Both the position numbers and the translations under genes were made by a program. Source: an uncultured delta proteobacterium (GTDB lineage: Bacteria > Desulfobacterota > BSN033 > UBA1163). From it: a DNA stretch of 64,000 bases. The notes under the pieces were generated by a model. The model searched no databases and had not been told where the DNA came from. It saw only the letters and a program-made list of their open reading frames with translations. Position 1 is the first letter of the stretch. Every line of letters begins with the position of its first letter. The DNA is taken from positions 15,152 through 79,151 of the forward strand of contig CAWHGS010000048.1 in assembly GCA_963828805.1 (NCBI GenBank), in the 5' to 3' direction. Positions 2,074-33,563 of this stretch are shown here, one piece after another.

Positions 2074-2089
2074 TTGAAGGAGGAGGAAC

Positions 2090-2948
2090 ATGAAAAGATG
2101 GTTTTTTCTTGGGTTGATTTGTGTCCTGTCATTCTTCCCGGCGCTGAGCGGGGCACAGGGCAGCAGGTTTATCCTTCTTGCCAGCACCATCGGACCCATC
2201 GATTCAGGCATTATCGATCGGCTGGAAAATGAATTTGAGAAAGAGACGGGGATTCGAGTGCGGCATGTCGGGGCAGGAACAGGAGCTGCTCTGGATATTG
2301 CGCAAGAAGGGAAATGTGGACCTTGTTCTGGTCCATGCCAAATCCCTTGAAGAGAAGTTTGTGCAGGAAGGTTTCGGGACAGAGAGAATTGATTTGATGT
2401 ACAACGATTTCGTCATCGTCGGACCCTCCAGCGATCCTGCCGGCATCAAGGGAATGAAAGTCGCCACAGAGGCTCTCAAGACAATCTCCGGCAAGGGCGC
2501 TCCTTTCGTCAGTCGCGGTGACCGATCAGGCACCCACGTGGCCGAGATGGAATTGTGGGAAAAGGCTGGAATGAAGCCTTCGGGACCCTGGTATGTGATC
2601 TACGAAAAAGGATCGGAAGGGAACGTTCCTACCCTCCGGTATACGGATCAAAAGGGAGCCTATACGGTTATTGACCGGGCCACTTATCTTGCCCTCAAAG
2701 ATCAGATTAAACTTGCTATTTTAGTTGAGGGGGATGAAGCCCTGCTAAACTTCATCAGCCTCATTCCCGTAAATCCCCAAAAATTACCAAAAGCGAATTA
2801 TGAAGATGCGATGGTTTTTGTCAAATGGCTGACTTCTCCGGAGAAGGGACAGAAGATCATCAAGGACTTCGGGAAAGATAAGTATGGGAGTCCTCTCTTC
2901 TTTCCCAATTCAAAGGAATGGAAAGCTTCGCAGGGTCAAAAAAAATAA
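2090..2948 (+). CDS. tupA: Tungstate ABC transporter substrate-binding protein, copy 1 (frameshift near 2305)
   Basis: Signal peptide, LASTIGPIDSG, VGAGTGAAL, MYNDFVIVGP, SRGDRSGTH; split over ORFs 2090-2350 and 2178-2948. Confidence 0.85.
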
Positions 2949-2975
2949 TCTTGACACTCATAAGGAGGAAATATC

Positions 2976-3840
2976 ATGTCCCGTGAAAGTAATGACACTT
3001 ATCCTAGCGTAAGCTTTGGGAATCTTCAGCTCTCTATTTTTTTCCGGTATGACACCTGTTCATGCCCAGCAGAAGACAATCATCCTTGCCACCACCACCA
3101 GCACACAGGATTCCGGTCTTCTCGATGTTCTTCTCCCCATCTTTGAAAAGAAGACAGGCTATTTTGTCAAGACGATCGCGGTTGGATCCGGGCAGGCCAT
3201 GGCCATGGGACAAAAGGGAGAAGCCGATGTGCTCCTGGTCCATTCCCCTTCGGCAGAGAAGAAATTCATGGCCGACGGTTACGGAGTGAACCGAAGGCTC
3301 GTCATGCATAACGATTTTATTGTCGTTGGGCCTGCAGAAGACCCGGCTAAAATCAAGGGATTAAAATCGTCCCAAGAGGCTTTTAAGAAAATCGCTTCAG
3401 CCAAGGCCCTCTTTTTATCAAGAGGGGATAACTCAGGGACGAATTCAAAGGAAAAAGAGATCTGGAAAGCCGCCGGAATCAACCCCGAAGCAGAGAAATG
3501 GTACCAGCAGACAGGCCTTGGAATGGGCCAGACCTTGAATGTGGCTGCTGAAAAGAAGGGCTATACCCTTGCTGACCGGGGGACCTATCTGTCAATGAAG
3601 AAGAACCTGAACCTCGATATCCTGGTCGAGGGAGATGCCATTCTCCTCAATATCTATCATGTGATCGAGGTCAATCCGGCCAAATGGCCCAAGGTGAATA
3701 CGGCAGGAGCAAAGGCTTTTTCCGACTTCATGGTTTCGAGGGAAACTCAGGACATGATCAAGACCTTTGGTGTCGAAAAGTTCGGATCGCCTCTCTTCTT
3801 CCCGGATGCCGGTAAAAAAGAAGAAGAATTAGGAAAATAG
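2976..3840 (+). CDS. tupA: Tungstate ABC transporter substrate-binding protein, copy 2 (start region probably frameshifted)
   Basis: LATTTSTQDSGLLD canonical TupA motif, MHNDFIVVGP, SRGDNSGTN; RBS AAGGAGG before ATG 2976. Confidence 0.9.
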
Positions 3841-3914
3841 AAAAAATCCGAAGCACAAAGCACCGAATTCGAGACAAATCCGAATGTGATGAAATCGTAG
3901 GAATTCCCCCGAAC

Positions 3915-4003
3915 TGTCATTGCGAGGAGTGAAGCGACGAAGCAATCTAATAGAATCAATGGGTTTCAAATGGTGAGATTGCTTCGCTTCGCTCGCAATG
4001 ACA
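3915..4003. repeat. Intergenic palindromic (REP/RPE-like) element
   Basis: TGTCATTGCGAG...GAAGCAATCT paired with AGATTGCTTC...CTCGCAATGACA. Confidence 0.8.
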
Positions 4004-4121
4004 CCTTTTTTAAGATTCAATACGGGGGAAAATGTTTACGTTTTGCAATTAGGATCATTTGGATTTAGGATTATTTGTGATTTCGGATTTCGATATTTGA
4101 ATTTCGAATTTTGGTGTATAG

Positions 4122-4822
4122 ATGGATCTCATTTTTGAAGGAATTAAAAAGGCTTTCTGGCTTCTGGTCACTTTTGATCCGGAGGTCATTGGAATTACCC
4201 TTCTTTCACTTGAGGTTTCCGGAATCAGCCACCCTCATCAGCCTGTTGATCGGGATATCGACTGGAGTCGCGATCGCCCTTTCCAGGTTTCCCGGGAAGA
4301 AGATCGTTGTAAGTCTTATCAATACGGGAATGGGCCTTCCTCCCGTCGTTGTTGGCCTTTTTGTCACGATCTTTCTCTGGCGGAACGGGCCTCTCGGCTT
4401 TCTGGAAATCCTCTACACACCGACAGCCATGATCTTTGCCCAGGCAGTGATTGCCACTCCCATCGTGATGGGCATTACCCTGGCAGCCATCCAGCAGCTT
4501 CCCCCAAAACTCCGCCTTCAGATTCTGGCCCTCGGGGCAACACGGCTCCAGATGGTATGGATCCTGATCAAGGAAGCGAGACTTCCCCTTATTGGCGGCA
4601 GTCATGGCTGGGTTTGGCGGCGTCATCTCAGAGGTCGGCGCCTCCATCATGGTCGGCGGGAATATTAAGGGATATTCACGGGTTTTAACGACAGCGACGG
4701 TCATGGAGACGAGCCGGGGAAACTTCGATATTGCCATTGCCCTTGGAATTATTCTCCTCCTCCTGGCCTACTTGATCAATTTAATCCTCACGCACATCCA
4801 ACAGAGGGAAAGACCCAGATAA
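4122..4822 (+). CDS. tupB: Tungstate ABC transporter permease (two frameshifts)
   Basis: NTGMGLPPVVVGL, ISEVGASIMVGGNIKG-SRVLTTA; pieces in three frames. Confidence 0.87.
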
Positions 4823-4868
4823 TATCGGGCGATGGGCAAGAGGCAATAGGCTCGAACTCAGAGCAAAT

Positions 4869-5971
4869 ATGAGTAAATCTGAGATCCATCGTAGAAGCTA
4901 AAGATATTCGGGTTGTCAGGGGAGGAACCCTATTGCTGGACATTTCTTCTCTTTTGATCCAGGAAGGAGAGGTTCTTTCCCTGATCGGACCCAATGGGGC
5001 TGGAAAGACGACTTTGATGCAGACGCTCTCTTACCTGCTGAAGCCCTTTCAGGGTGAGATTCGATACAGAGGGCAAACAGTCCATTCGAATCATTCGGTC
5101 ATCGGCTACCGGAGAAGGCTTGCCATGGTCTTTCAGGAACCCCTCCTCTTCGATGCCACTGTCTTTGATAATGTTGCTTCAGGGTTAAGAATTAGAAGAA
5201 TGAAAGGGCCAGAGATGCGGACCATTGTGGAAGAGCAGCTGGCGCGTTTTGGAATTGCTCACCTCGGCCATCGTTCTGCCCGAACCCTTTCCGGGGGAGA
5301 GGCGCAGAGGACGAGCCTTGCCCGGGCCTTTGCAATCCAGCCCGAGATTCTTTTTCTTGATGAGCCCTTTGCCTCCCTTGACCCTCCCAGCCGGGAATCT
5401 CTGATCGAGGATTTGGAACTTATCTTGAAGCAGACAGGGACCACGGCGGTCCTTGCCACTCATGACCGGTTGGAGGCCCTGAGACTTTCGGACCGAATCG
5501 CTGTGATGAAAGATGGGAAGATGGTTCAAATGGGTTCTCCGGAAGCGGTGATGAACTACCCCGTGGATGAGTTCGTTGCTTCCTTCGTCGGAGTGGAAAC
5601 GATACTCACAGGAGAGGTGAAGAAACAGAACAGCGCAACTTTTGTGGCTTCGATTTCGGGAAGTGAAATTGAGGCCGTGGGACAGGTTCCCTTAGGGGAG
5701 ATGGTTTTCCTCTGCATCCGGCCGGAAAACGTGACCCTTTCGACGAACGCTTCGAAGGAAACGACAAGCGCCCGAAATGTTTTCCCGGGAAGGATCGAGA
5801 AAGATTACTTCTCTGGGACCTTATCAAAAGGTCCAACTTGATTGTGGTTTTCCTCTTGTGGCCTATGTGACGCATCATTCTTTGGAAAAGTTGTCGTTGA
5901 AGGAAGGAAAAGAAGTGACTGCTTCCTTTAAGGCAACAGCCATTCATGTCATCAGAAAGAAGGAACAATAA
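4869..5971 (+). CDS. tupC: Tungstate ABC transporter ATP-binding protein with C-terminal TOBE domains (frameshifts; start approximate)
   Basis: GPNGAGKT, LSGGEAQRTSLARA, DEPFASLD, TSARNVF and VTASFKATAIH TOBE motifs. Confidence 0.85.
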
Positions 5972-8705: not shown

Positions 8706-9244
8706 CTTCCCCTTCTCTCAATACCATTTCCATGAGCAGGATGTCAAATCAAACCTCCTTCAAAAATGACACCACAAGTTGTGCCTATGAAATGGACTGA
8801 TACTACATCTTGTTGTCTTGAGGGTTCAACAAAATTATTTTTGTAATCTCAACAACTTAAATCATTTACTCACAATTTTTGTGAAAATAATGTTGATAAA
8901 CTGTGCGAAGGGCTTTCCGCGATAGCCAATGTACATCATTCACAGCAAAATGCCTAATTTTTAGGCACAACAATTTCAATAATATTAATGATTTATTACG
9001 ATGTTTTGTTTTTTGACCTACAATTTCTTCTATCTCACTGCCGGAAATTGAAGATCCCGGCAATCTTCATGGCCATGATGAGCTTCGGGACAATGAGCCA
9101 GAAGGAATGGAGTCTCATGGGCCCACATTCCTTCTGGAGGTCTGAGTTAAACCGTCAGACTCTAATGTGTAAGTATCCAATGCTCGAAAATCCAATTGAC
9201 TGACCAAAAGATTTGGAGTAAAAAAGAGATAGGGAGGGGTCAAT

Positions 9245-9796
9245 GTGAAATCTATTCTAAAGTGCTCTTCGTCCCTGATGCTTCTGGTTCTCTTGATCTC
9301 CCCGAATGTCGTTTCAGGAGGTGGCACCATGGAGATTTCATCGGCGGCATTTAAAGACGGAGAAAAGATTCCTATTCAGTACGTCATGCCGGGAGCGGGT
9401 GGAAAAAATATCTCCATTCCGTTGGCATGGAAGAACGTCCCTTCCGGGACAAAGTCATTTGCCTTGTCGATCGTTGACCCCCATCCCGTCGCCCAGAATT
9501 GGGTCCACTGGCTCGTCATCGATCTTCCAGCAAATGCGTCGTCAATTGATGAAGGAGTCTCTCGAAAGAAAATGCCGTCAGGCTCCGTGGAGTTGAAGAA
9601 CTCTTTTGGAGACATCGGTTACGGAGGGCCCCAGCCCCCCAAAGGAACCGGTGATCATCCTTACGTTGTGACGGTCTATGCGCTGAATGTGGATAAACTT
9701 GGTTTGGGCGCCAGTACATCACTCTCTGCCTTCAAGAAAGCGATCGAAGGAAAGGTGGTCGGCACAGCCTCGATTACCGGAAAATACGGCCGGTAA
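9245..9796 (+). CDS. YbhB/YbcL (PEBP/Raf-kinase-inhibitor-like) family protein
   Basis: NISIPLAW, SFALSIVDP, WVHW, GYGGPQPPKGTGDHPY. Confidence 0.92.
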   Translation: MKSILKCSSSLMLLVLLISPNVVSGGGTMEISSAAFKDGEKIPIQYVMPGAGGKNISIPLAWKNVPSGTKSFALSIVDPHPVAQNWVHWLVIDLPANASSIDEGVSRKKMPSGSVELKNSFGDIGYGGPQPPKGTGDHPYVVTVYALNVDKLGLGASTSLSAFKKAIEGKVVGTASITGKYGR

Positions 9797-19129: not shown

Positions 19130-19447
19130 CCGAGTAAGACGGAGTCACAGCAAGCCGTTTCCCTTTGCTCACCATCGCTGAATGTCCCGCATATTTACAT
19201 CCATCCAACCCGTTTATGTCCTCGTGTTGCGGGGCAGGATGTAGTGCCTGATCGTACTAAGAGATGAAAATGGTTGGGCATCAACGCCATGCGAATACCC
19301 ATCATGCCTTCCTTGAAGCAAACTCCGCCAATCACCGGAAAAAGTCCTCTTTGTTCCAGTCATCCAAAAATATCCGGCCTCGTTCGATCCCTCTCCCCAT
19401 CAGATGATGTAGCACACCGGGGCCTCCAGTCTCGCTTGTCTTGGCAA
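19130..19447 (-). pseudogene. Degenerate REP-associated tyrosine (Y1/HUH) transposase, RAYT-like; 3' limit approximate
   Basis: Hand translation across indels: MPRQARLEAPGVLHHLMGRGIERGRIFLDD...AWALMPNHFHLLVRSG (HUH motif), with in-frame stops and an internal deletion. Confidence 0.8.
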
Positions 19448-19724
19448 GGCCTGCCTTAGCATATGGGTGCTTATATTGGAAACGTCCCCTTGTCCTTAAC
19501 TGGGAGATAAAGGGGATGGTCTGTTAGTGGCAAAGAAAACGGTACCGAATATGGTAGTGATGGATTCGTAAGATGTTAGCACCGATCTAAGTATTCCCTC
19601 CTTCTCATTGCTGTTCTTCAAGCCCACAGAAAAATAGAGATCCTTTTCCTTCTCATTCCTCTTGGTCCTTTTCTTCCTTTGGCTTGTATGATTACTGTCA
19701 TTCCAATGCCGAAGGGAAACTAAG

Positions 19725-20351
19725 ATGCGAGGGAAACGGTGTCCGTATTGCCATAAGTTCTTTTCACCCAATCCGAAAGTAAGGCAACGGCAGAGAACTT
19801 GTGGCCGTCCTTCCTGTCAGAAGGCGTTAAAGGGAGAGAGAAATGCCCGATGGCGAGAGGAAAACCCTGATTGCTGCCGTGGGGATTACTCAAGGGTCAA
19901 AGTCTGGCTTGATGGTCATCCGGGTTATCTCCGGCGTTACAGACAAAGCCATCCTACCTATGTCGAGAAGAATCGTCAGGCCCAAAGGTTCCGGGACCGA
20001 CGAGAAAAGGTTCATCTTGATATACAAGCCAAGATAAAGAGGGAACCTGCTGAAATCATTAATGAAATAACTGAGCAATCATTGAGTTTGTCCCATCTTG
20101 ATATACAAGACGAGACATTCTTACAACCCATTGAAATCCATTATGTTTTATCCACGTTAGCCTGCCTAAAGCCTCTTGATATACAAACTCAGTTGGACAA
20201 ATCGATTCCTTCGAAGGACAATGGCCTTATTCCACCGGGAGGTCAGTCCCATGGCCATCAAAAGACTCCTTTGTCCAGACCGAGTTCGAAAGATCGAAGG
20301 CTCCTTCAGTTGGATCGATCACCGCTTTGTCACCGAAGGGTTCCTCCATGA
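19725..20351 (+). CDS. Element A ORF1: Cys4 zinc-finger, basic protein
   Basis: CPYC-x16-C-x4-C, W...NPD, HPGYLRRYR; homologous to 28256-28657. Confidence 0.75.
   Translation: MRGKRCPYCHKFFSPNPKVRQRQRTCGRPSCQKALKGERNARWREENPDCCRGDYSRVKVWLDGHPGYLRRYRQSHPTYVEKNRQAQRFRDRREKVHLDIQAKIKREPAEIINEITEQSLSLSHLDIQDETFLQPIEIHYVLSTLACLKPLDIQTQLDKSIPSKDNGLIPPGGQSHGHQKTPLSRPSSKDRRLLQLDRSPLCHRRVPP
20013..20194 (+). repeat. Triad of direct repeats TCTTGATATACAA in element A (starts 20013, 20094, 20172)
   Basis: CATCTTGATATACAAGCCAAGAT / CATCTTGATATACAAGACGAGAC / CCTCTTGATATACAAACTCAGTT; spacing 81 and 78. Confidence 0.85.
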
Positions 20352-20649
20352 TCTTTCCATGATCGAGATCCTCCTCTATTTCTTTCTGGTCGCTGTCTCG
20401 GATCGTCATGGACTGAGTTTTTATCATGATGATCGGATAGCCTCGCTTCTGAAGATGGATCTGCCCGCTCTGGGTAAAGCGAGGGATGCTCTGGTGAAGC
20501 GTTCTCTCCTGGCCTATGAACCGCCTCTCTATCAGGTTCTTTCGCTGCCACCGAAGCCCATTGCTCCTCCATCCAGAGAAGAGAGGGAAAGACAAGAACA
20601 GGAGCTGGCTCATCACTATTTCAAAAAGATCAGGGAGATGCTCCAATGA
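20251..20649 (+). CDS. Element A ORF2: putative winged-helix DNA-binding protein
   Basis: SFSWIDHRF...LLYFFLVAVSDRHGLSFY...AR-ALV...YQV; RBS GGAGG; homologous to 27670-28206. Confidence 0.75.
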   Translation: MAIKRLLCPDRVRKIEGSFSWIDHRFVTEGFLHDLSMIEILLYFFLVAVSDRHGLSFYHDDRIASLLKMDLPALGKARDALVKRSLLAYEPPLYQVLSLPPKPIAPPSREERERQEQELAHHYFKKIREMLQ

Positions 20650-20721
20650 AGATCGCTACCTGAACCTCCCTCGGTTACGGGGAGAAGAAAGAGAAAATAG
20701 ATGAAAACGAAAGGAGGATCC

Positions 20722-22137
20722 ATGGACCCTGCAATGTTGAATCAAGTGAGACATCTCTACGAGGTGGAGCGGTTAAGCCAGCGGCAGATCGCTCAGAAAC
20801 TGGGGATCTCCCGAAAGCGCGTTTCAAGGCTTCTCCATCCGGAGTCTTTGAAAAAACCTTTTCGGGAGACGATCTTCCAATCCTTTGAGCGGCTGGTCCG
20901 GGAGTGGTACCGGGAACACCCCTCTCTGAAAGCGACCCAGGTCTATGAGCGGTTAAAGACCTACGGATTCCCCGGAGGGTATGGAACCGTCAAGCGCCAC
21001 ACCCGGGATCTTCGGAAGAAACAGCGGCGTTGGTTTCATGAACTTGATTTCTTACCGGGCGAGGAGGCTCAGGTAGACTGGATGCAGTGGTCCTTTCCCT
21101 TTGGTGTGCTCTATGGATTTGTCTTGATCCTGGCCTATTCCCGGTATCTTTTTGCCCGATTCTACCCTCGACACTCCCTGGAGTTCTTCTTGGAGGGCCA
21201 CATCGAAGCCTTCAAAGAAATCGAAGGCATGACCCATCGGCTCCGGTATGACAATCTTCGAAGCGTGATCCTCCAACGAAATCCTGAAACCATTTACAAT
21301 CGCCCAATTTTTGGATTTCGCACGACACTACGGCTTCTCCATTCATCCCTGCACACCGGGAAGGGCCAACGAGAAAGGACGCGTAGAAAGGGTGATCAGG
21401 GACATCAAGGACTTCCTCCGGGTCACGCCCTGTGAAGATCTTCGTGAGGCCAACCGCAAACTTTCTCTTTGGCGTCATGAGCGAAACCAGCGGATTCATC
21501 GGAGCACCGACAAATCTCCGATCGAAGCCCTCAGAGAAGAAAGACTCAAAACCCTACCTCAGATTCATTACCAGCCTTACCGGGTCGTCCAGGCTTTGAT
21601 CAGTAAGACCGGTTTTGTCGCGTTGGATACCAACCGTTACTCGGTCCCTTCCTCCTTCTCGGGCTCGGGTTGCGAAATCCTCGCCTATCCCGATCACATC
21701 GAGATCTGTGTCAAAGACAGAAAGATCGCTACCCATCCCCGATCCTTCGAGAGAAAACAGAAGATCGAACATCCCACCCATCGGGAGAAACTCCTTCAGA
21801 TCACGCCTCACTTCAAAGCGAAGCGAATCTATGAGCTCATCAAGGCGCATGGATAAAAGTGTCGCCCTCTTTCTCCAAGAAGCGGAATCCGACGGGCAGA
21901 ATCCCATGGAGGTCGCCTATGACCTCTTCAAGCTCCTGACCCAAAGCTCCAAGGCCATGTTCCTCTCGGCCATCCGGGAGGCCAATGGTTTGAAGATCTG
22001 CAAGATCCGCTACCTTCAGAGCCTTCTTGCAACCCTCTCGATCTCGGGAGGATCATCCTGTCCATCCTCAGAACCCTCACCTCTTAACCATCACCTATCC
22101 CGGGAGGTCTCTCAAAGACTATGACGACCTTGAATGA
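20722..22137 (+). CDS. istA: IS21-family transposase IstA (several frameshifts)
   Basis: N-terminal HTH, PGEEAQVDW, LAYSRY, YDNLRS, ANEKGRVER, DTNRYSVP. Confidence 0.88.
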
Positions 22138-22579
22138 ACTCTGGCGCTTCTTCAAGTTGCTCTCTGAGATCGAAAGTTTCTCCGATCAGGAAAAAACCTT
22201 CTTACTCCGTTTCCTTACCGAGGAGTCTCAACTCCGGGAACAAAAACGAATCCAACACCTGCTCCGTATGTCGGGCATCAAACGAATCAAACGACTGAGC
22301 GACTTCGACTGGACGTTCAATCCCAGGATCCCCCGAGACAAACTCATGGAGTTTGTCCAAACCCAGTGGCTCAAGACCCCCTGCAATCTCGTCCTCATCG
22401 GCCCGGCCGGCGTCGGCAAATCTCACCTCGCCACGGCTCTTTGTTACGAAGCCATCCTCAAAGGCCATCAAACCGTCTTCCTCTCTCTCTTTGATCTCAC
22501 GGCCAAACTCTCCAAAGCCAAGAGCCCTTACACCCTGATCGAGCACTATGAGAAAATCCCCATCCTCTGCCTCGATTAA
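22121..22579 (+). pseudogene. istB: IS21-family ATPase IstB, truncated at Walker B by RIT
   Basis: LSDFDWTFNP, Walker A GPAGVGKSHLA, ends ILCLD then TAA supplied by the RIT end. Confidence 0.9.
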
Positions 22580-22607
22580 TGTGAAGCTGTCAGTAATGTG
22601 GAGTTGA
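22577..22607 (+). repeat. RIT left terminal inverted repeat
   Basis: TAATGTGAAGCTGTCAGTAATGTGGAGTTGA. Confidence 0.95.
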
Positions 22608-22720
22608 GCCCGCAAGAGCCTGCACTCGGGGTCTGCCGGCGTTTTCAACTTCACATTTTTGGGGTAGCATCGGAACTACTGCCGTCCGGCAGTTGAATCC
22701 ATTTTTTATGGAGGTGTCCG

Positions 22721-23960
22721 ATGCTACGTTCTCTATTGCCCAAAGCTCATCCCAAGTTTTTGGCCATGCCTGTATTGGGGCCGATCGTCGATGGCTTTGA
22801 CGATTGGCTCAGCGCCAGTGGCTACACCCGAGGCTCACGCGAATTTTCCATCCGTATACTACCGCGTGTGGATGCGGAACTGCGGCGTCATCAGATTGAT
22901 GATGTCGCCAAGCTGACCCACCCAGTTCTTCACGATTGCTGGAAACTTTTGATGAAAACCTGCCCTGAACGCGCAGGAACCGTGCGGTCCTTGGAACGAT
23001 ATTTACTTGCACAAGGGCTGATCGCTGATGACCGGCAAGCGACAACTCCACCCTCCGTTTCGATTTTGAGTGAAGAGTACGCGAATCACCTGCGCGAAGT
23101 GTGCGGATTCGCTGCGTCCACCATTTCCAGCCACCGGTGTACAGCCAGAGTGTTTTCTCCGGCACCTGGAAGAAGAGGGAGCCACACTGCGATGCATTCA
23201 GACCAGCAATATCGAATCGTACATCGCCAAGACCGGCAAACGCCTGAGCCGGGCAAGTCTCCAACACGATATCGGTGCGCTGAGAGGATTTCTTCGATTC
23301 CTCACCACCAATGGCAGAGTTCCCACCGGACTGGATCGCCAGATCGATACTCCGCGACTTTACCGGCTTGAGCAACTCCCTCGGGCCTTACCCTGGGAAA
23401 CGGTTCGCACACTTCTGCAATCCATTGACACGGCATCGGCGATGGGATTGCGAGATTACGCCATGTTTCTGCTGATTGCCACTTACGGATTGCGCAGCAG
23501 CGAGGTCGTTGCCCTTACCCTCGATGATATTCGCTGGCGTGCAGGCAGTTTACAAATCCATCAGCGCAAGACTTCCTCGCCCTTGGAACTGCCCCTTACC
23601 AACGAAGTTCTGGCCGCACTGGTGAAGCATCTGAAGCGGACTCCACCGCCAGCGCCGTATCGAAGGGTCTTCCTCAGAATGCGCGCTCCCATCGGGGAGC
23701 TAAAACCCACGGCCATTACGGAAGCTTTTCAATCTCTGGTTCGAAAAAGCGGTCTCCGTATTCCTTTTCAAGGCCCACATTGTCTGCGCCACTCCTTTGC
23801 GGTCCATCTGCTCAAAAACGGAACCCCTCTCAAAACAATCGGTGATATCCTCGGGCATCGTACGGCCGAGAGCACGTCGATGTATCTACGCTTGGCGATT
23901 GAGGATTTGCGCGAAGTCGCTCTTCAGGTTCCGGGTAATGGAAAGGGGGGCCAGCTATGA
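22721..23960 (+). CDS. RIT tyrosine recombinase A (frameshift near 23150)
   Basis: LPRALPW, RDYAM, YGLRSSE, HCLRHSFA, ILGH, STSMY. Confidence 0.9.
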
Positions 23961-24966
23961 CAAAAGAAAATGTGGCATTCTCGTCTCGTCTTGCGCCCGT
24001 CTTCGAGCGGTACGTGAATTTGAAGCGGGCTTTGGGCCGCCGTTTCGATCATGAGACTCGGCACTCTGCAATCCCTGGACCGATTCCTGCATGACCATGC
24101 TACCACATACCCAGATCTGAATGCTGCCGCGTTTCAAGCATGGTGCCACACCCAGGAGAAACTTGCTTCGGGGGTTCGGCGGGTTCGCATGCTGCAGGTT
24201 TACAACTTGTGCCTGTATCGCCGTCGAACCGAGCCGCACTGTTTCCTTCCAGACCCCAGCGCCTTTCCCCCATACCATCAACGCCTCCAGCCGTACATCT
24301 TCTCCGAGGACGAAGTGGCGCGACTCTTGCGTGCGGCCTCGGGGTTGAATCGAGTCCCGTCCTCGCCCCTTCGCCCAGAGGTGATTCGACTGGCCATCGT
24401 GCTCTTATTCACTACTGGCATCCGACGCGGGGAGTTGCTGCGTCTCATCCTGAGCGACTATAACCGGCAGAATTCGACGTTGCTCATTCGAGAGTCGAAG
24501 TTTTACAAATCCCGGCTGCTTCCCATCAATAGCGATATCGTCTATGAGATCGAGCAGTATCTGGATGCCCGAGCCCGGCGCCAGCTGCCGACTTCTTCCG
24601 ATACGCCTTTGATATGGAATGCCGCCCAGGGTGGACGAGCATACAGTGGAACGTGTCTGCGGCTCTGCCTACAAGCCGCTGCTCCAGCAATGCGGCATTG
24701 TCACTCCGAAAGGAAGGCTGCCGCGGATTCACGACTTTCGCCACGGCTTTGCCGTAAATGCCCTGCTACGCTGGTACCGAATGGGCGCCGATGTCGAGGC
24801 CAAACTGCCGTTGCTGGCAACTTATCTGGGGCACGGCTCGGCAGTATCGACGCACTACTACTTGCGGTTCATCGAGCCGCTCCGTACGGCCGCCAGCGAG
24901 CGGTTTGCCAATCATTACGGTTCGCTGGTCTCTGCGCTACCGCCCGTGGAAAGGAGGCCCAGATGA
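23957..24966 (+). CDS. RIT tyrosine recombinase B (two frameshifts)
   Basis: PYIFS, TGIRRGE, ESKFYKSRLLP, HDFRHGFA, LATYLGH, THYY. Confidence 0.9.
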
Positions 24967-25975
24967 AACGTCCCTTCCCAATCTACTTGGTGCGATAATC
25001 AGGGATTACTTCACGGATCACCTTCCCCGTCTTCAAGGAACCAGTCCGCACACGATCCACAGTTACCGCGATAGCATGGTTCTGCTCCTTCGTTTTCTTT
25101 CCAAGCAACGGAACAAACCGGTGACGGGACTCGATCTGACTGATTTGGATCCGTCAGGAATTCTCGCGTTTCTCTCCTATCTTGAACAGGAGCGGAAGAA
25201 CAGAGTATCAACGCGAAACGTCCGGCTCTCGGCCATCCACGCGTTCTTTGGCTTCGTGGCATCACGGAATCCCGAGCATCTCGATTTAGCACAGCGTGTC
25301 CTCGGGATCCCTTTCAAGCGCACCCAGCAACGGGCAATCGACTACTTGGAATACGATGAAATCGAGTCAATTCTCAACGCGATCAACCGAAGCACGCCGC
25401 AAGGAACCCGTGACTATGCCCTTCTCGCGACGATGTTCAACACGGGCGCCCGTGTGCAGGAGATCGCTGATCTGCGTGCCTGCGACTTGCAGTTGACCAA
25501 GCCGTTTCAAGTGAGATTGTTTGGTAAAGGCAGGAAGGAACGATACTGCCCTCTATGGCCCCAAACCGCCATGGTATTGCGATCTTTCTGCAATCAGCGG
25601 AACCTGGACTTGCGCTCAGAAGCTCGCGTCTTTCTGAACCATCGTAACGAGTCGTTAACCCGCTTCGGGATTCGTCATATCCTAGCCAGGTGCCTCGCTT
25701 CCGCTTGCCAAGACGCCCCGAATCTCCGCAAGAAAAGGCTGCATCCACACAGCATTCGGCATAGCACGGCCGTAGCCCTCCTAAAATCGGGAGTTGATTT
25801 ATCAACGATAAGCCACCTGCTCGGACATGCGAGCCCAACCACGACGAATCGCTACGCGAAAGTCGATCTGGAAATGAAGCGTCGGGCCATCGCACGGGTC
25901 AAACCGGTTCCACGGCGGTCACGTACGCCTTGGGCCAAAGACCACACGGTGTTGGACTGGCTGGAATCTTTGTAG
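24963..25975 (+). CDS. RIT tyrosine recombinase C (frameshift just after start)
   Basis: SPHTIHSYRD, TRNVRLSAIH, TGARVQE, GKGRKER, HSIRHS, LLGH, TNRYA. Confidence 0.92.
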
Positions 25976-26034
25976 GCGCATTTTAATGTGGAGTTGACAG
26001 CCCAAGAAAGCTCGGTTTCATGGAGTTCCGCACG

Positions 26035-26065
26035 TCAACTCCACATTACTGACAGCTTCACATTA
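26035..26065 (-). repeat. RIT right terminal inverted repeat
   Basis: TCAACTCCACATTACTGACAGCTTCACATTA, exact reverse complement of the left repeat. Confidence 0.95.
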
Positions 26066-26521
26066 GTCGATACAGAGGACCCTGACCTTTGCATAATAAT
26101 CGATTTTGGAAGCCGGGTTGTAAGCCCTATGGATCCTTGAGACGAGGTCGAAGGCGGTGATACAAGCCGTGGGATAACCCCGGAGAATCGCCTCATAACA
26201 AAAGGCTGAAGCGATATGGGATTTACCAAGCCCAGTGTCTCCGATGAGGACAAGGTTGAAGGCATTTTCGACCCAGGGCGAGTTGACGAAGGTCAGGATG
26301 TCGTCCTTGCTGATCTTGGGATTGAAGTGCCAGTCGAACTGCTCCAGAGTCTTGACATGTTTTATGCCCGACAGACTCAGGAGTCTTTTGATTTTATGCT
26401 GCCTTCTGTATTCGATCTCCATCTTGAGGAAGTGAGGATTGCTTTCACGGCGGTCGGAGGCGATCTCATCGGGCGGGGTCTTGCAGCCCAATTCCTTAAG
26501 CAGGGATTCAAGATCATTCAT
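26063..26521 (-). pseudogene. istB: IS21-family ATPase IstB, truncated at Walker B by RIT
   Basis: LEQFDWHFNP, Walker A GDTGLGKSHIA, ends VLCID then TAA supplied by the RIT end. Confidence 0.9.
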
Positions 26522-27929
26522 CGTACTCCTCCAATCCTCTGGGTTTATAAGAGATATTCAGAAGCTCGTCCTTCTGAGGCTGGACGGTCTCGGCCTCGGT
26601 AAACTCCATGTGCAGATACGACAGAAACGTCCTGAGTCTGGGGGACTTCTTGTTGAGACACTCCGAGGCGACACTGATGAGCATTCCCCGGCTGTGGCTT
26701 TTCATAAGCTTGAAGATCTCATAAGCAGTCTTTTGAGGGTCCTCTCCGACATGTCTCGATTTTTGACCAGGAAGTCCGACATCGCAGGATGCAGGTTTTT
26801 GATCACCTCATGGATCCGGTCGATCTTGGCCTTGACGGAGAGCTTACCGTAACTCCTGTGAAGGGGATTGATGATCTGACCGTGTCTGTCAAAGGACCTC
26901 GGATGAGAGGCCACCCGCTTGGCGCCGTCGTAGATCGTGACCGTATCCGGGGTTGAATGTATGGAGAGGGATTTTCCCACGAGGTAGTCGGGCACGGAAT
27001 AGTTATTTGTATCAAAGATCATCAGGGCGGTCTTGGTGGTCTTGACCGGCGGATGGATCAAAACATTGTTCCAGGGTTTCTCGGGAAGGGGCCGGAGTTT
27101 CTCCTCCTGAAGCACCTCTACCGGCTTCTTCCGTGGTTCTGTGGACGGTATGGTTTTTATGGTCCACCCATTCATGAAGCGCCTGATTGAGGGCCTTTAG
27201 AGAAGAATGCATCTGTATGGTATTGAAGAATGTTTCTCTCAGCGTTCGGATCGCCCGTTCCACACGGCCCTTCTCGTTGCCCGCCCCAGGATTGCACAGC
27301 CGGATCTCCAGGGTGTAATGGCGTGAGAACTCCAAAAAGCGTGGATTATACTGGATCTCCGGCCTGCGCTTTAATACCACGGTTGAGAGGTTGTCATACC
27401 GGATGCCGTAGGGAATCCCCCCAAGGGCACAAAAAGCCATCAGATGCCCCTCGATAAAGAACTCAAATGAACTGCGGGCGAAAACATGGGCAAACAGATA
27501 CCGCGAGTAGCTCAGGATATAGATGAAGCCGTAAAGTTTTCCAAGGTGGGGATGGTTGATAAAACACCAGTCTGCTTGTGCCTCCTCCCCCGGGAGAAAG
27601 GTGAGCGGATGATAGGCCTTCGGCACCTTTTTACGGAACCCCCTCGTATACTTGACCACCGCAGGGTAGCTAATCTTTGCTCCCCTCGTCCTTAACCACC
27701 CGTGGACTTGCTGGGCCTTTAAGGTCGGATGCTCTTTGAACCACTCCGCGATCAGAGAGCGGTAGGGGTCCAGGATAAAGTCCCTCCTTTGTCGCCTCTC
27801 CGGACAGCATTCTCGATATATGCGCGAGGCGCGCTTTCGCGAGATCCCGGTCCGGTCTTGGATCTGGTAAAAGCTCAGATTTAGGACGTCCCGAAGATAA
27901 CGGATCGTCTGTCTTATCGTCTCTTCCAT
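26514..27929 (-). CDS. istA: IS21-family transposase IstA (frameshifts)
   Basis: PGEEAQADW, LSYSRY, YDNLST, GNEKGRVER, DTNNYSVP. Confidence 0.88.
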
Positions 27930-28206
27930 GTTCTCTCCTTTGCGGTATGTTCTTGACCTCCCAGTAAGGGCTTTTGTAGCTTACAAGAATTTCGGATATC
28001 AGTTCCTCTCTGGCATGATGGAGCACTGGGCCGCTTAAACGAAGGATCTCCATGATCGATCGATCCGAATAAAAACTTCGCCCTTGCCGATCTCCGACCA
28101 CCACCAGAAACAGATACAGGATCATCGATTCGTGGCTCAATCGATGAAGATACCTGCCATGAAGGATCTGGTGGTCGATGATGGAGTAGCTCCGGGCCCA
28201 TCGCAT
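27670..28206 (-). CDS. Element B ORF2: putative winged-helix protein, overlapping istA
   Basis: SYSIIDHQ...ILYLFLVVVGDRQGRSFY...AREELI...YWEV. Confidence 0.72.
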   Translation of the reverse strand: MRWARSYSIIDHQILHGRYLHRLSHESMILYLFLVVVGDRQGRSFYSDRSIMEILRLSGPVLHHAREELISEILVSYKSPYWEVKNIPQRREHGRDDKTDDPLSSGRPKSELLPDPRPDRDLAKARLAHISRMLSGEATKEGLYPGPLPLSDRGVVQRASDLKGPASPRVVKDEGSKD

Positions 28207-28240
28207 GGGTCAATCGTAGAATAGCCGAATCAATGGATCA

Positions 28241-28411
28241 ATCGAATCTTGTATCTCACAGCGCCTTTTGTCCTCCGGCAACGTAGGAGCCGCATTCACA
28301 CTGCCTTACCAGCCTTATCTCGTCTTGTATCTCGTTTTTGAGCATTCTCTCCGGTATCACGAGAACCATGGTCCTGACTGGCTCCGAAGGGGGTATCTCG
28401 TCTTGTATCTC
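28241..28411 (-). repeat. Triad of direct repeats GAGATACAAGA in element B (starts 28411, 28333, 28257)
   Basis: GAGATACAAGACGAGATA twice and GAGATACAAGATTCGAT; spacing 78 and 76. Confidence 0.85.
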
Positions 28412-28657
28412 ACGGACCTTTTTCCTCCAGAGCCGCTGATAATCGGGATGCTTCTTACGCCACTCCTTGATTTCGCTGTACCGGCCCTTGAAACAGTCCG
28501 GATTCGCCTCCAACCATTTCTTCTGGCTCTCCCTCTTGCGCTTGGCCCTGCACGTCGTATCACTGCAACTCTTTTGGGTTTTCCTCGCCCTCGGATCAGG
28601 CCTGTAATACCGTCCGCAGTAGACGCACCTCTTCTGTCCGTTCTCTGTCGCTTCCAT
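28256..28657 (-). CDS. Element B ORF1: Cys4 zinc-finger, basic protein
   Basis: CVYC-x16-C-x4-C, W...NPD, HPDYQRLWR. Confidence 0.75.
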   Translation of the reverse strand: MEATENGQKRCVYCGRYYRPDPRARKTQKSCSDTTCRAKRKRESQKKWLEANPDCFKGRYSEIKEWRKKHPDYQRLWRKKVREIQDEIPPSEPVRTMVLVIPERMLKNEIQDEIRLVRQCECGSYVAGGQKAL

Positions 28658-28854
28658 ACGCTTATCTTGACAGATAAGGTGACAGCCGAACTTAGGGGCG
28701 GTTGTATCAGGGAATCAAAAGAATTAAATACATTGAATGTGGGGGGGGGAATTAAATGAAGAATAAAGGTGGGGCCTGTGCTTATCGGAATCAGGTCAGT
28801 TTTGGATATCGCCTACAGAATACGGGTCTTTCGTTACATCAGGGACTCGGGCTA

Positions 28855-28870
28855 TGTTTCACGTGAAACA
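28855..28870. promoter_or_regulatory. parS centromere site
   Basis: Perfect consensus TGTTTCACGTGAAACA. Confidence 0.93.
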
Positions 28871-29006
28871 TAAGAAGATATCGCGTCCGTGTTTCGTGTT
28901 CGGGGATTTGACCAAGGGTGCCCTGTAACCCCCCTCGCCCCCCCCCCTTTGTACGAAAGGGGGGAAGGTTAATTAAGGAAATTTAGATCTAACAAAATTT
29001 GTTTGT

Positions 29007-29925: not shown

Positions 29926-31349
29926 CTATTTTCCGATGCAGAATTGATCAAATATTCGGTTTAGCACATCTTCGGAAGTGGTTTCTCCCATCAGCTCTCC
30001 GAGGGCTTCGAGGCAAGACCGAATATCGAAGGCGATGAATTCAGGTGAACTTCCCTCTTCCAGACCTTTGATTGCACTTGAGAGATTGTCCCTCGCCTGA
30101 GCCAGACCATTCTTGTGCCGAATGTTGGCGACGATCAGGTGATCAGGAGATTTTCTCACGTCCCTATGGATCAGGGAAGTGTAGATTGCTTCTTTCAGGT
30201 CATTGATTCCCTCATTCTTAAGCGCTGAAAGATGAACGATTGGGTCGTTTTCAAATTTAGCTTTCAGGCTCTCTTCCGAGACTCTAACGGGAAGATCCTT
30301 CTTGTTCACGACCAACACTCTTTTCCTTCTCTCTGTTTTTTGCAGGATCTCCCGGTCATCTTCGTCAAGCTCACGGCTACCATCAATCACTAACAGGAGG
30401 AGGTCTGCTTCGTCCATTTTCTCCTTCGTTTTCTTCACCCCTTCCCGCTCCACAGTGTCCACTGTCTTTCTCAGCCCTGCCGTATCCATGAGTCTCACAG
30501 GAATCCCTTGAACATTAAGAGACTTCCTCAATCACGTCCCTGGTTGTCCCAGGCACCGGCGTCACAATAGCTCTTTCCTCTTTGATGAGCACATTAAGAA
30601 GGCTCGATTTCCCCACATTCGTCTTTCCGATGATGGCACAGGAGATTCCCTCACGGAATATCTTGCCCTCTTCATAGGACGCGATCCATTCCTCCAATTT
30701 TTCGACCATTCCCGTCAGATCATCCTGAAGCCTTCTCAAAGAAACCGACTCGATCTCTTCTTCCGGGAAATCGATATGGGCCTCGATCAGGGCCAGGTGA
30801 TTCACCAGCGTTTCTTTGAGGGACATCATTTCCTTAAAGAGCATGCCTCTGAGTTGCTGATTGGCGACCTCGAGGCCGGCCATGGTCCTCGACCTGATCA
30901 GATCGATCACCGCTTCAGCCTGGGTGAGATCGATCCGGCCATTGAGAAAGGCCCTCTTTGTAAACTCTCCGGGCTGGGCAATCCTTGCGCCTTCCTTCAG
31001 GACCAGCTCCAACATTTTCTGTAAAATCAGGTATCCGCCATGGCAATGAATCTCGACAACATCCTCCCTGGTGTAAGTTCTGGGCGCCTTCATCAGGACA
31101 ACAAGGACCTCATCGACAGCATCTGCCTGTCTCGGGATTGATGATCTCTCCGTAATGGAAATGGTGTGAAATAGACTGGGTGGAGTCTTTCCTTGGCTTA
31201 AATAATTTGCGGACAATCGACTCGGCCTTGGGGCCGCTCATGCGGACGATTCCGATGCCGCTTTCTCCAACAGGGGTTGAAATGGCAGCGATCGTTTCCT
31301 CTTCCCCGGCCGCTTCCTGTTTCGAAATGGTAGAGATGTTTCGATTCAA
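29926..31349 (-). CDS. mnmE: tRNA modification GTPase MnmE (two frameshifts)
   Basis: [47 protein letters not shown]. Confidence 0.95.
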
Positions 31350-31360
31350 GAGGTTAGATA

Positions 31361-31826
31361 TTATTCCCCTTCTTGCCTGGTGGGGATGATCTTAATTTTT
31401 TTCCATTCCCCTTCCCCAAGGCTCTCCGTCTTGAGGGAAAGGTCTTCTTTCAGGGCAATATGAATGATCCGTCGATCATGGGCATTAAAAGGGCCGATCA
31501 GTAACTTCCTTTCCCGTCTTTTTCACATTTTCTCCCAACCGACCAGCCATTTTTTCCAGGGAATCGGCTCTTCGTTTCTTATAGCCTGCAACATCGAGAA
31601 TGATTCGAACAGGCTTTTTAATCTGCTTATTCACCATCCTGCTGATAATGATTTGGAGCGCCTCCAGGGTACGACCGTGCTTACCGATGAGAATGCCGCC
31701 GTCATCGCTTTTAACCTCCAGATAAATATCTCCTTCTTTGACGGAGCCTTCGACTTCGGTCTCAATTCCGAGCCTCTGGAGCAATCCCAGCATTAACTGT
31801 CTTGCAACTTCAACCCATTCTTCCAA
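31361..31826 (-). CDS. jag: Jag/EloR KH-R3H RNA-binding protein (frameshift; lacks Jag_N domain)
   Basis: [28 protein letters not shown]; follows yidC. Confidence 0.88.
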
Positions 31827-31839
31827 AGCGACATCCTCA

Positions 31840-33563
31840 TCATTTCTTGTTCATGTAGTATTGATGGCCTATGGTAAGGATATTATTGACCATCCAATAC
31901 AGAACCAGTCCGGACGGAAAATTGAGGAACATAAAGGTAAACACGACCGGCATCATAAGCATCATCTTTGCCTGTGACGGATCAGCGGTCGTGGGTGTCA
32001 TCTTCTGTTGAATCACCATGGTTGCCCCCATGATAATCGGCGTGATATAGATGGGGTCTTTCGCAGAGAGATCCTGGATCCACCAGAAGAAGGGGGCATG
32101 TCTCATCTCGATCGTATTCTGCAGCGCATTATAAAGGGCGATAAAGAATGGAATCTGAATCACCATGGGAAGGCATCCGCTCATGGGGTTCACTTTTCGC
32201 CGCTTATAGAGGAGCATGATCTCCTGCTGAAGCCTCGCCTTGTCGTTCTTATAGGTTTCTCTGAGCCGTGCCATCTCCGGCTGGACCTTCTGCATCTCCT
32301 TCATCGATTTGAAGCTTATCTGAGTCAGGGGAAGAAAGATGAGTTTTATCAGGATGCTAATCAGAATAATATCGATACCATAATTTTTCGTAGCGGTGTG
32401 GGTCAGGTTTATGAACCACAGGAGCGGCTTGGCAACGACCGTAAACCATCCGAAATCGATCAGCTTTTCCGCCTCGACACCAACGGCTTTCAATGGCGTC
32501 TCGGCTTTCGGTCCGAGATAGACCCGATACGGAATTTTGACAGACTGCTGGGGGAGTATGGTAGACGGGGGAGGGGACAGAGTGGCCAGCAAGATATTCT
32601 TTGCATTACCTTTTACAGATAGGGCAACGTCCTTCACGGCCGGAGGAGGTATCAACATGGCACAAAAATATTCGCCGCCAAAAGAAAACCACTTAATGTT
32701 CCCTTTATCTGAGAATTCAAATGGCTGTATCGTTTTACTCTGAGGCCCACAACTGGGGACACAGCCTCCAGAGCTTGCGCCGCCAAACTCATTCTTCTCT
32801 ACTTTCTCATTCTTCAGGAATTCATACCTGAGCCCGAAATCCTTGTTTCCCTCATCGACCAACTTAACCAGATCAATCTTTCCAATCCATTCAAGTCCCA
32901 ACTGGAGAGTGATTTCATTTGAGGTTGGATTCTGAACTTCGACATCGATATCGATGATCTCATCTTCTGAATGAAACCGATATCGCTTTACCACCTTCAA
33001 GCCATTTTCCAACTCTTTCTCAAAGGTCACCTCTCCATTTTCACCGGGACGAACAAGGCTAAGTTTCTCCTTGTCCACATCCCAATTTCCGGCTACAAAA
33101 GGGGATTGGGAGCTCGAGTCCCAGAGGGAGACCTTCTTCTTCGTTTGTATTAATGAGGTCGAGGGGTTCCGGTTTTTTTGGCTCTCCAGTTTTATTACCC
33201 AGGATGCCTTCAACGAATCGAGTCAGCGTAATCGTGATCGACGACTCTTCCACCCTATCTTTATATTTTTTCAGCTTAAAGTGCTTGAGTTTTGCATCCT
33301 GGTTGGTGAGGACAGCCACAATAGTTCTTGGTCTCAACGGAAACCTCTTTTGTTGCAACCTCTTTCACCTTGGAGCCGGGTTTAGACTCTTTTGACGGAG
33401 CAGGTTTTGTTTGGAGGATCTCTTTTTTCTGTTCTAAAGGTGCAACCTGTTCCTTCTTCACCTCTTGAACGGGTTCCGGTGGAAAGAGTTTCGATTGGAT
33501 AAAACTCCAGCCAATTATAATTATAAATGTCAATATTATCGCAAGGATACCTTTCTTTTCCAT
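31840..33563 (-). CDS. yidC: Membrane protein insertase YidC (frameshifts)
   Basis: VYLGPK, IDFGWF, NPMSGCLPMVIQIP, PSGLVLYW. Confidence 0.95.

Follow-up and report, generated by a model that had tools for sequence, protein, structure and literature searches.

Two IS21-family elements facing each other in the window

The DNA analysed here, hereafter the window, is a stretch of 64,000 nucleotides from an uncultured delta proteobacterium of the Desulfobacterota (contig CAWHGS010000048.1, positions 15,152 to 79,151). Between positions 19522 and 28817 it contains two IS21-family insertion sequences (IS), named A and B, which face each other with a single RIT element in between. Upstream of the transposase gene istA and its partner istB, both carry two additional open reading frames (ORFs), ORF1 and ORF2, and three short direct DNA repeats. 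The unit formed by ORF1, the repeats and ORF2 is referred to below as the cassette. Features of both elements are listed in window coordinates, istB' denoting a truncated istB:

19522..22576, + strand: element A (IS21 family, with ORF1-repeats-ORF2 cassette), cut short in istB by the RIT insertion
19522..19586, + strand: left end of A, with the terminal repeat TGTTAGTGGC from 19522 and an internal second copy, TGTTAGCACCGAT, from 19574
19725..20351, + strand: ORF1 of A, Cys4 zinc-ribbon protein, strongly basic (isoelectric point, pI, 10.3), its conserved part being about the first 80 codons
20016, 20097 and 20175 (span 20016..20187), + strand: three direct repeats of A, CTTGATATACAA(G/A), with spacings of 81 and 78 bp
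20251..20649, + strand: ORF2 of A, predicted winged-helix protein of 132 amino acids with a C-terminal helix; GGAGG lies 8 nt 5' of the ATG
20701..22124, + strand: istA of A (IS21 DDE transposase), in three frames
22121..22576, + strand: istB' of A, 5' part of 152 codons, stopping at the Walker-B Asp codon
26066..28817, - strand: element B (diverged, IS21 family, with cassette), cut at the same istB codon as A
26066..26521, - strand: istB' of B, 5' part of 152 codons, matching IS21 models
26702..27929, - strand: istA of B, in two frames
27889 (approximately)..28206, - strand: conserved part of ORF2 of B; the open frame extends to 27670 across the istA start
28246..28411, - strand: three direct repeats of B, GAGATACAAGA(C/T), with + strand starts at 28400, 28322 and 28246 and spacings of 78 and 76 bp
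28256..28657, - strand: ORF1 of B, from the ORF call and homology to ORF1 of A

A first-pass annotation, made from the sequence alone, had proposed the gene order ORF1-ORF2-istA-istB in two diverged elements, and this order is found in both A and B. The motifs that it had listed are likewise present in both copies: CxxC-x16-C-x4-C, W..NPDC and HPxY in the ORF1 proteins, and IDH...LY.FLV.V.DR.G.SFY in the ORF2 proteins. The junctions of A are as tight as it had described, with an overlap of 101 nt between ORF1 and ORF2, a gap of 51 nt between ORF2 and istA, and an ATGA overlap between istA and istB. Two of its points hold only in part: the element comprises the four genes but begins at 19522 and not at 19725, and all four genes are represented in both copies but are not complete, istB stopping at codon 152 where the 3489-bp RIT element sits.

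The IstA proteins match the IS21 transposase model NF033546 (4.2e-59 for B, with 200 bits for a cut-off of 160, and 8.6e-40 for the first fragment of A), as well as the rve and Mu-transpos_C_2 models. The IstB fragments match PF01695 (5e-26 and 2e-22) and NF038214 (2e-30 and 1e-24), the latter under the cut-off because only 152 codons are left; relatives of the window elements encode full-length IstB. Identity between A and B is 41% over 71 amino acids for ORF1 and 41% over 83 amino acids for ORF2 (E 2e-20 in both cases), 43% over 230 amino acids for IstA and 47% over 122 amino acids for IstB. With all four genes in the range of 41-47%, they have diverged together. These are the only two copies present in the source genome, which is 64% complete.

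Throughout the text, L-numbers designate the loci compared, G233 a compared genome and X-numbers public sequencing runs. Compared with contigs of X1 and X2, istA of A contains one additional base near each of 21300, 21846/7 and 22024/6, which accounts for its three reading frames. The extra bases (21300, 21846-21847 and 22024-22026) could be either sequencing errors or real frameshifts. The recombinase genes of the RIT element (22721-25975) and istA of B also span more than one frame.

ORF1 and ORF2 lie inside the ends of recently active elements

The left boundary of A is placed at the position where the contigs of X1 and X2 cease to match the window (19521/19522). The sequence TGTTAGC(A/G)CCGAT forms the inverted ends of the A-related elements L003 (47-3493) and L004 (55-3502). 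The left end of B is TGTAGGCGATATCC at 28817, and homology to its relatives ends at 28816-28817 (L071, L061 and L062) or 28819 (L068). In relatives of B, the ends TGTAGGCGATA(C/T)C...CA enclose all four genes: L062 (3128 bp) has terminal inverted repeats (TIRs) and a 5-bp GATGT duplication, and L071 (3141 bp) has TIRs and no target duplication. The right ends of both window copies have been lost to the RIT element; both ends are present in L003, L004, L062, L071 and L077-L079.

The clearest intact copies come from the cultured Caballeronia sp. SBC1 and SBC2, whose complete replicons carry the element at nine places in six records. Three of these copies are 100% identical over 3424 bp, with the TIRs TGTCATCGGCG/TGTCAGCGGCG (TG...CA), and all three are bordered by 5-bp duplications, each different (CCACC, CCCTC and CTTTG), around ORF1-ORF2-istA-istB; the four genes are annotated in RefSeq as hypothetical, hypothetical, istA and istB. 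The Caballeronia element is a recently active four-gene IS. ORF1 and ORF2 of the SBC1 element have the accessions WP_165097078.1 and WP_147408238.1. A near-complete genome from the phylum of the window contains two four-gene IS21 copies that are 99.9% identical over 3348 bp. Since the TIRs and 5-bp duplications lie outside the whole set of four genes, ORF1 and ORF2 belong to the core of the element and are not cargo, in agreement with the first-pass annotation; their divergence together with istAB and their retention in recently active copies agree with this. The opposite arrangement, with terminal repeats between ORF2 and istA, was looked for and not found: in most loci, ORF2 either adjoins the gene that follows it or overlaps with it, leaving no space for an IS21 end between them.

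At L077 (regions 387-5337 and 9148-9762), the Caballeronia plasmid copy lies directly after a set consisting of an integrase, a hypothetical protein, a tyrosine recombinase and a small ORF, which resembles an SE/GInt-type core; a TniQ-family gene follows shortly after this copy.

Proteins encoded by ORF1 and ORF2

Neither protein matches a model of Pfam or NCBIfam at E 0.01. At E<=1e-3, 1742 relatives of ORF2 were detected, none of them named and most encoded on contigs of 1-5 kb, and ORF1 relatives form 1013 representative clusters (50% identity) at the same threshold.

The structural model of ORF2 has a mean predicted local distance difference test score (pLDDT) of 90 and consists of a winged helix, an N-terminal extension and a long C-terminal helix; the winged-helix fold is predicted with confidence. 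Its structural matches are generic: RepA_N initiator domains, aligned over 82 residues at Z 8.4 (root-mean-square deviation 2.7), are tied with Crp-type DNA-binding domains (64 residues, Z 9.0) and MarR regulators (Z about 7.4), and a DnaD/DnaB-type primosome domain scores Z 7.6. Foldseek returned nothing for ORF2 at E<=1e-3, and the best hits of a PDB profile search were RepA_N initiator domains at a non-significant E of 0.14. The HTH_36 model weakly matches 16 of 40 ORF2 relatives (best E 3.6e-4), the window ORF2 itself having no Pfam match. Among 8000 scored candidates, only seven longer proteins with an ORF2-like part were found, six without any Pfam domain and one with an IstA C-terminal domain, none of them an informative fusion.

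ORF1 is modelled as a zinc ribbon followed by three helices over residues 1-80 (pLDDT >90), and its N-terminus is very basic (pI about 10). The rest of the protein, beyond about codon 80 in A, is encoded by the stretch that holds the DNA repeats and is modelled as disordered (pLDDT 45-67). For the ORF1 fold, Foldseek against PDB gave E>4 and a wide structural search a best Z of 2.8, so that no relative was detected, which does not prove a new fold.

Three direct repeats conserved at the DNA level

The repeats follow the zinc-ribbon part of ORF1 and precede the ORF2 start, with exactly three per element, all in one orientation and 68-81 bp apart. Cassettes were compared at 74 loci, obtained by scanning one genome per species in many phyla. 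A 10-mer occurring three times at steps of 60-90 bp was found in 61 of the 74 regions and in one of 370 shuffled controls. The repeats sit 250-650 bp from the left end of the element, on a constant side and in a constant orientation, and are unlike the terminal repeats of the same elements.

The motif follows the clade of the cassette and not the recombinase, with an ACAAG core common to all:

TCTTGATATACAAG: A-like clade, with IS21 and with recombinase trios
GTAAGTCCCACAAG: Acidobacteriota clade, with recombinase pairs and with trios
GAGATACAAGACGAGAT: B-like clade
GCGTTACAAGA: Caballeronia

Across 13 aligned A-like sequences, the motif does not vary even at synonymous positions, whereas the flanking codons do (mean column identity 60%), indicating that the constraint acts on the nucleic acid. 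A structured RNA was considered and rejected: an Rfam scan of 19400-29000 at E<=1 gave nothing beyond two chance-level matches, and RNAalifold on the 13 sequences predicted pairing only between the palindromic repeats, with no compensatory pair.

One cassette combined with several classes of transposons

At 61 of the 74 loci, ORF1 is directly upstream of ORF2. As candidate partners we took ORFs of at least 110 amino acids on the + strand, starting from 250 bp before to 3.8 kb after the end of the ORF2 match (196 in total); a Pfam scan covered 136 of them, leaving aside those shorter than 200 amino acids, those beyond the third per locus and 14 distant ones, and eight were scanned later. The genes that follow the cassette fall into the following classes:

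16/74 loci: istA and istB
12/74 loci: three tyrosine recombinases in a row
23/74 loci: two tyrosine recombinases
3/74 loci: other or partial tyrosine-recombinase sets
3/74 loci: a single tyrosine recombinase, then the contig end
4/74 loci: an IS110-type transposase directly after ORF2
3/74 loci: a weakly rve-like protein of 402 amino acids (other rve-type transposase)
5/74 loci: no recombinase
5/74 loci: contig end before any gene

In the trio loci, the three tyrosine-recombinase genes are adjacent and overlapping. Several of the tyrosine-recombinase units are mobile with the cassette inside: L028, L049 and L050 share 3392 bp at 99.85% identity, L039, L041 and L042 about 3.73 kb, and L009 and L010 about 4.3 kb. 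The DNA shared by such multi-copy elements extends from about 190-400 bp 5' of ORF1 to just past the last recombinase gene. Long terminal inverted repeats were sought in the cassette-bearing tyrosine-recombinase elements and none was found.

A tree of ORF2 (69 rows) requires at least nine changes of recombinase class among five classes, for a possible minimum of four. Judged from sequence comparison, the cassette is repeatedly combined with IS21 istAB, with trios and pairs of tyrosine recombinases, and with IS110-type and rve-type transposases. It is shuffled within IS21 as well. Element A and L003 are 76% identical in nucleotides over 19576-20662, which covers the cassette, yet their IstA proteins are only 32% identical; homology, like the loose contig ends, stops at 20652-20662, directly 3' of the ORF2 stop, and contigs from other samples diverge exactly at 20652. 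The A lineage is placed beside B in the IstA tree (support 100) and with L003 in the ORF2 tree (support 98), both trees being quick builds to be read with caution.

Three observations concern the borders of recombinase-pair elements and the IS110-type genes. At four loci, IS110-type genes begin at the extreme right end of such elements (L028:8611-9420, L049:8587-9666, L050:8587-9585 and L040:3509-4402), and the IS110 DNA of L028 is unlike that of L049 and L050, which may point to independent insertions that target the element end. A check for bridge RNA at seven IS110-type loci gave no Rfam family at gathering score. In one Acidobacteriaceae genome, the left arm of recombinase-pair elements contains, 5' of ORF1, a variable number of tandem copies of about 225 bp (L039:4626-5521, L041:5078-5521 and L042:4847-5521).

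The cassette family occurs in at least nine bacterial phyla, according to record titles. In the phylum of the window, ORF2 relatives are present in 18 of 301 sampled genomes (15 of 201 genera), with up to 15 in one near-complete genome. Viral contigs and phage records contain no cassette relative. DNA close to element A was found in contigs of 18 public runs from 19 studies labelled as wetland or freshwater sediment, one of which may be the source sample. Contigs from the RNA libraries X19 and X20 match ORF1-ORF2, istA and istB in part, with a likeness of 90-97% that cannot show transcription. A 2617-bp contig filed in a Bathyarchaeota metagenome-assembled genome (L012) also carries a cassette, which may reflect a binning error and not an archaeal copy.

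A ParB-like protein in place of ORF2

A natural swap was seen among IS21 elements in relatives of the window genome. Two of these elements, L114 and L116, carry the ORF1-ORF2 cassette, and in L105 and L107 no cassette is present within about 1.45 kb upstream. In L106 (114-1312) and L111/L122 (L122:117-1459), the ORF1 homologue and three repeats (TGATTGCAAAGATGGACGAG, 81 and about 80 bp apart) are kept and ORF2 is replaced by a ParB/KorB-type helix-turn-helix (HTH) protein. The substitutes in L106 and L122 match HTH_ParB above the cut-off (3e-10 and 3e-12) and KorB (3e-6 and 2e-6), with weak ParB_N matches under the cut-off (2e-3 and 1.4e-4). The closest counterpart of the L106 ORF1 among cassettes of the ORF2 type is found in L020 (43%), which has a similar repeat motif, ATTGATTGCAAAAA. 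This single case suggests that the repeats travel with ORF1, whereas the second protein would be a DNA-binding partner that can be exchanged. In L121 (156-1550), another Cys-rich basic ORF and a ParB-like protein precede istA.

The RIT element between A and B

The RIT element lies outside the cassette and separates the two 5' halves of istB:

22577..26065, + strand: RIT element, 3489 bp, with three tyrosine-recombinase genes
22577-22607 and 26035-26065: perfect 31-bp terminal inverted repeats of the RIT element

Its coding part comprises three sets of ORFs matching Phage_integrase (1e-26, 3e-9 and 5e-32), two of them in two frames. In both A and B, istB ends at codon 152, the Walker-B Asp, and the stop codon is provided by the first three bases of the RIT element. 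About 98% identical A-like contigs from other samples (including X1 and X2) span 19521-22576 and continue beyond 22576 with istB (ELGYV...) where the window has the RIT end; the RIT insertion is therefore particular to the window genome.

A 24-base piece of the inverted end is found in 24 metagenome contigs. On both sides of the window copy and in L082, L091, L100 and L101, the RIT lies directly after an (I/L/V)D Walker-B codon, in different IstB-like genes, and L097 shows the istB 3' side of such an insertion. At least four other IstB-like genes thus have a RIT relative at this very codon, which suggests target specificity, a property that published work treats as untested for RITs. L101 (3559-3902) represents a simple insertion, istB resuming after a 20-bp palindrome that resembles two joined end tips. 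Such a palindrome (TAATGTTGAGCTCAACATTA or a variant) adjoins one end of many RIT copies (L101, L093, L097, L080, L083, L085, L089 and L096), with flanks of 6-bp sequences that are mutually inverted; it may be an attachment-site mimic or a footprint.

The istB halves that flank the window RIT face each other and come from different elements. This arrangement is best explained by two RIT insertions followed by recombination between both RIT copies, misassembly across the repeat being a possible alternative. Nesting is seen elsewhere: in L023 (5176-9324), a RIT lies inside the first recombinase of a pair-type cassette element, and in G233 (L125 and L126) a 3.2-kb RIT occupies one point of an IS21-type element at three places, each with a different right flank. 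RIT nesting is a plausible route by which the cassette could change hosts. A fossil unit of ORF1, ORF2, truncated istA and RIT, considered for G233, was rejected, the sequences being two separate repeats (the left part of an IS21 and the 3.2-kb RIT) that are nested and rearranged.

Past element B in window coordinates, the region 29926-33213 contains genes that by eye resemble mnmE (in two frames, 29926-31216), jag and yidC; if so, they would put the window near a chromosomal origin region.

Possible role of the cassette

The cassette is located between the left end of the element and the recombinase genes, is co-oriented with them and is often translationally coupled to them. We tentatively favour, with a rough probability of 45%, the view that it is a portable, self-contained DNA-binding unit that governs expression of the downstream recombinase. 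The cassette proteins would bind the three repeats and form a nucleoprotein complex over about 150-240 bp just 5' of the recombinase genes. ORF1 would be the likelier reader of the repeats, with ORF2 or the ParB-like substitute as its partner; we infer this division of labour, as well as the effect on expression, from the anatomy described above. The complex could then act as a built-in governor, either an autorepressor or a roadblock to read-through from outside, setting the amount of recombinase. Acting on expression would explain how the cassette can work with any recombinase, and we prefer this role since it is the simplest one that is indifferent to the chemistry of transposition and fits the fixed position of the cassette.

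Several points weigh against this proposal. Sites about 70-80 bp apart within a coding region are unusual as operators, and a wrapped or bridging complex with another role fits equally well. The clean triple repeat is absent from 13 of the 74 regions, and a promoter scan was uninformative (two sites for 1.3 expected). The candidate role of ORF1 as reader depends on the one natural swap. The classes of loci are our own assignment from Pfam matches on 136 of the 196 candidate ORFs, and the IS110 genes beside ORF2 may be separate insertions and not true partners. Finally, the ParB-like substitute and the weak likeness of ORF2 to RepA_N and HTH_36 equally suggest roles of a partition or replication type.

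The last point leads to an alternative that we regard as unlikely, namely that ORF2 or its ParB-like substitute binds the repeats as iteron- or centromere-like sites, replicating, pairing or partitioning the circular or tandem-junction intermediates of IS21, IS110 and tyrosine-recombinase transposons. Circular or junction intermediates are thought to be used by all the partner classes, a ParB-family protein is able to stand in for ORF2, and the repeats are direct, as iterons are. Iterons are, however, contiguous and 20-22 bp long, unlike sites spaced by 68-81 bp. RepA_N is the best PDB profile match of ORF2, although not a significant one, and gives its longest structural alignment (82 residues; the DnaD/DnaB-type domain follows at Z 7.6); weak HTH_36 matches in 16 of the 40 members point the same way. 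Nevertheless, the winged-helix matches are tied with Crp and MarR regulators (Z 9.0-7.4), so that the fold does not discriminate. With only about 100-130 amino acids, ORF2 has no second domain for the recruitment of a helicase or primase, and the seven longer forms show no informative fusion. A ParA-type gene is absent, and the cassette was not found on phage records or viral contigs and was seen on plasmid records only within the IS. In a broader form to which we give slightly less credence, the unit of ORF1, repeats and ORF2 or ParB-like protein would be a miniature centromere- or replicon-like persistence cassette, common to DDE IS21, DEDD IS110 and tyrosine-recombinase trios and pairs, and passed between them via nested insertions such as a RIT inside an IS21. 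If true, no earlier accessory system would have been shared by several transposition chemistries, and transposon circles would become short-lived replicons.

A second alternative, about as improbable as the first, makes the complex an architectural or directionality factor that bends or wraps the left arm of the element, aiding synapsis, choice of ends or immunity in the manner of enhancer-type or accessory-site complexes. The position of the repeats, 250-650 bp from the left end with constant side and orientation, would suit such a factor, and their spacing is near half-integral helical turns (68-69 and 76-81 bp), as could be expected of wrapped DNA. Small auxiliary proteins are needed elsewhere, TnpC in Tn554, Srap in SE and GinD in GInt, according to the relevant parts of PMC10214605. 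A single complex would nonetheless have to serve the DDE, DEDD and tyrosine chemistries, whose synapses differ considerably; the repeats, moreover, bear no resemblance to the terminal repeats of the elements that carry them, and their motif tracks the lineage of the cassette, not the recombinase.

The first-pass annotation had pictured ORF1 and ORF2 as cofactors specific to IS21, acting with IstA and IstB, for instance by selecting targets or by serving the DnaC-related IstB as a loader-like partner. The related Tn7 systems do have target selectors with a zinc finger and HTH (TniQ/TnsD), all four genes have diverged in parallel in A and B, and in a small sample the IstA proteins associated with the cassette fall in one group with support 95, in which 17 of the 19 rows carry the cassette. 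We consider this partnership quite improbable all the same: istAB follows the cassette in only 16 of the 74 loci, and tyrosine recombinases do so in at least 42; the cassette has its own DNA sites within the element, and its phylogeny disagrees with that of IstA. The linkage to istAB is thus partly broken, most of the other 58 loci having tyrosine recombinases or an IS110 transposase downstream.

Least likely of all is a selfish passenger, an addiction (toxin-antitoxin-like) or defence pair riding in transposons and autoregulated via the repeats: a small gene pair with a DNA-binding member and repeats would suit it, and toxin-antitoxin pairs are reported, in part of a preprint, as integrated in Tn3-family transposition modules (bioRxiv 10.1101/848275), but neither ORF shows a toxin-like fold or family (best Z 2.8 for ORF1; nothing in Pfam or NCBIfam for both, the PADLOC library not having been searched), and the fixed position and orientation and the translational coupling to the recombinase gene argue for integration with its expression.

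Comparison with known systems and significance

The elements of the window and their relatives share with IS21-family members (IS21, IS5376) an IstA DDE transposase and an IstB AAA+ protein that match the family models, overlapping istA and istB genes, TG...CA terminal inverted repeats with extra subterminal copies, and, in intact relatives, target duplications of 5 bp, within the 4-8 bp of the family. They differ in carrying an additional pair of genes and three internal repeats, all placed between the left end and istA, for a total length of 3.1-3.4 kb. Structural papers on IS21 describe, in the sections relevant here, IstA and IstB alone (PMC10122671 and PMC11208146).

Many of the cassette loci resemble RITs in having three adjacent and overlapping tyrosine-recombinase genes, or two. 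RITs, as described in parts of PMC3414803 and PMC10214605, consist of ritA, ritB, ritC and inverted repeats of about 34 bp only, whereas the cassette-bearing trios have no long terminal inverted repeats. The label BIM, considered for the recombinase pairs, was dropped, since in the relevant part of PMC3414803 it denotes one recombinase with an unrelated protein. SE, GInt and Tn554 also require a small auxiliary protein; according to the same parts of PMC10214605, their tnpC, srap and ginD genes are downstream and encode coiled coils, whereas here the pair is upstream and has its own repeats.

Outside these families, the cassette can be compared with two kinds of DNA-binding systems. InsA, the zinc finger and HTH repressor of IS1, belongs to the transposase frame and binds at the terminal repeats of its element. 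As here, small zinc-finger and HTH functions are encoded just 5' of the transposase, with a likely role in limiting its expression; the difference is that the cassette consists of two separate proteins and of internal sites travelling with the genes, in a unit common to unrelated transposon families. RepA_N initiators (PDB 4pql, 4pt7 and 5kbj) align with ORF2 over 82 residues (Z 8.4), although the sequence similarity is not significant (E 0.14) and ORF2 has no C-terminal recruiting domain. With RepA_N and ParB/KorB systems the cassette shares sites in the form of direct repeats within a coding region, and a ParB/KorB-type protein substitutes for ORF2 in L106 and L122; the cassette differs from them by having no ParA, another spacing of sites, and a location inside transposons instead of at a replicon origin or centromere.

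The first-pass annotation knew of no characterised element with this layout, and our literature search likewise yielded no description of the cassette or of the four-gene arrangement, in a coverage that did not extend to ISfinder, TnCentral and the supplements of the RIT papers. The IS21-family and tyrosine-recombinase transposons are already known; the cross-family portable cassette looks to be an undescribed part.

Insertion sequences are defined as carrying only what their movement needs, and IS21, with its two proteins, serves as a structural model system. The present work adds a large and widespread family, within which the IS21-type members possess two additional conserved genes and phased DNA sites. 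The identical, active copies in a cultured soil Caballeronia strain make the role of these genes testable. The cassette is also a useful marker for the tyrosine-recombinase transposons of Acidobacteriota and Thermodesulfobacteriota, which are poorly known. Should it prove to be a portable governor of recombinase expression, or to have a more active role, it would represent a general solution to a problem common to all transposons.

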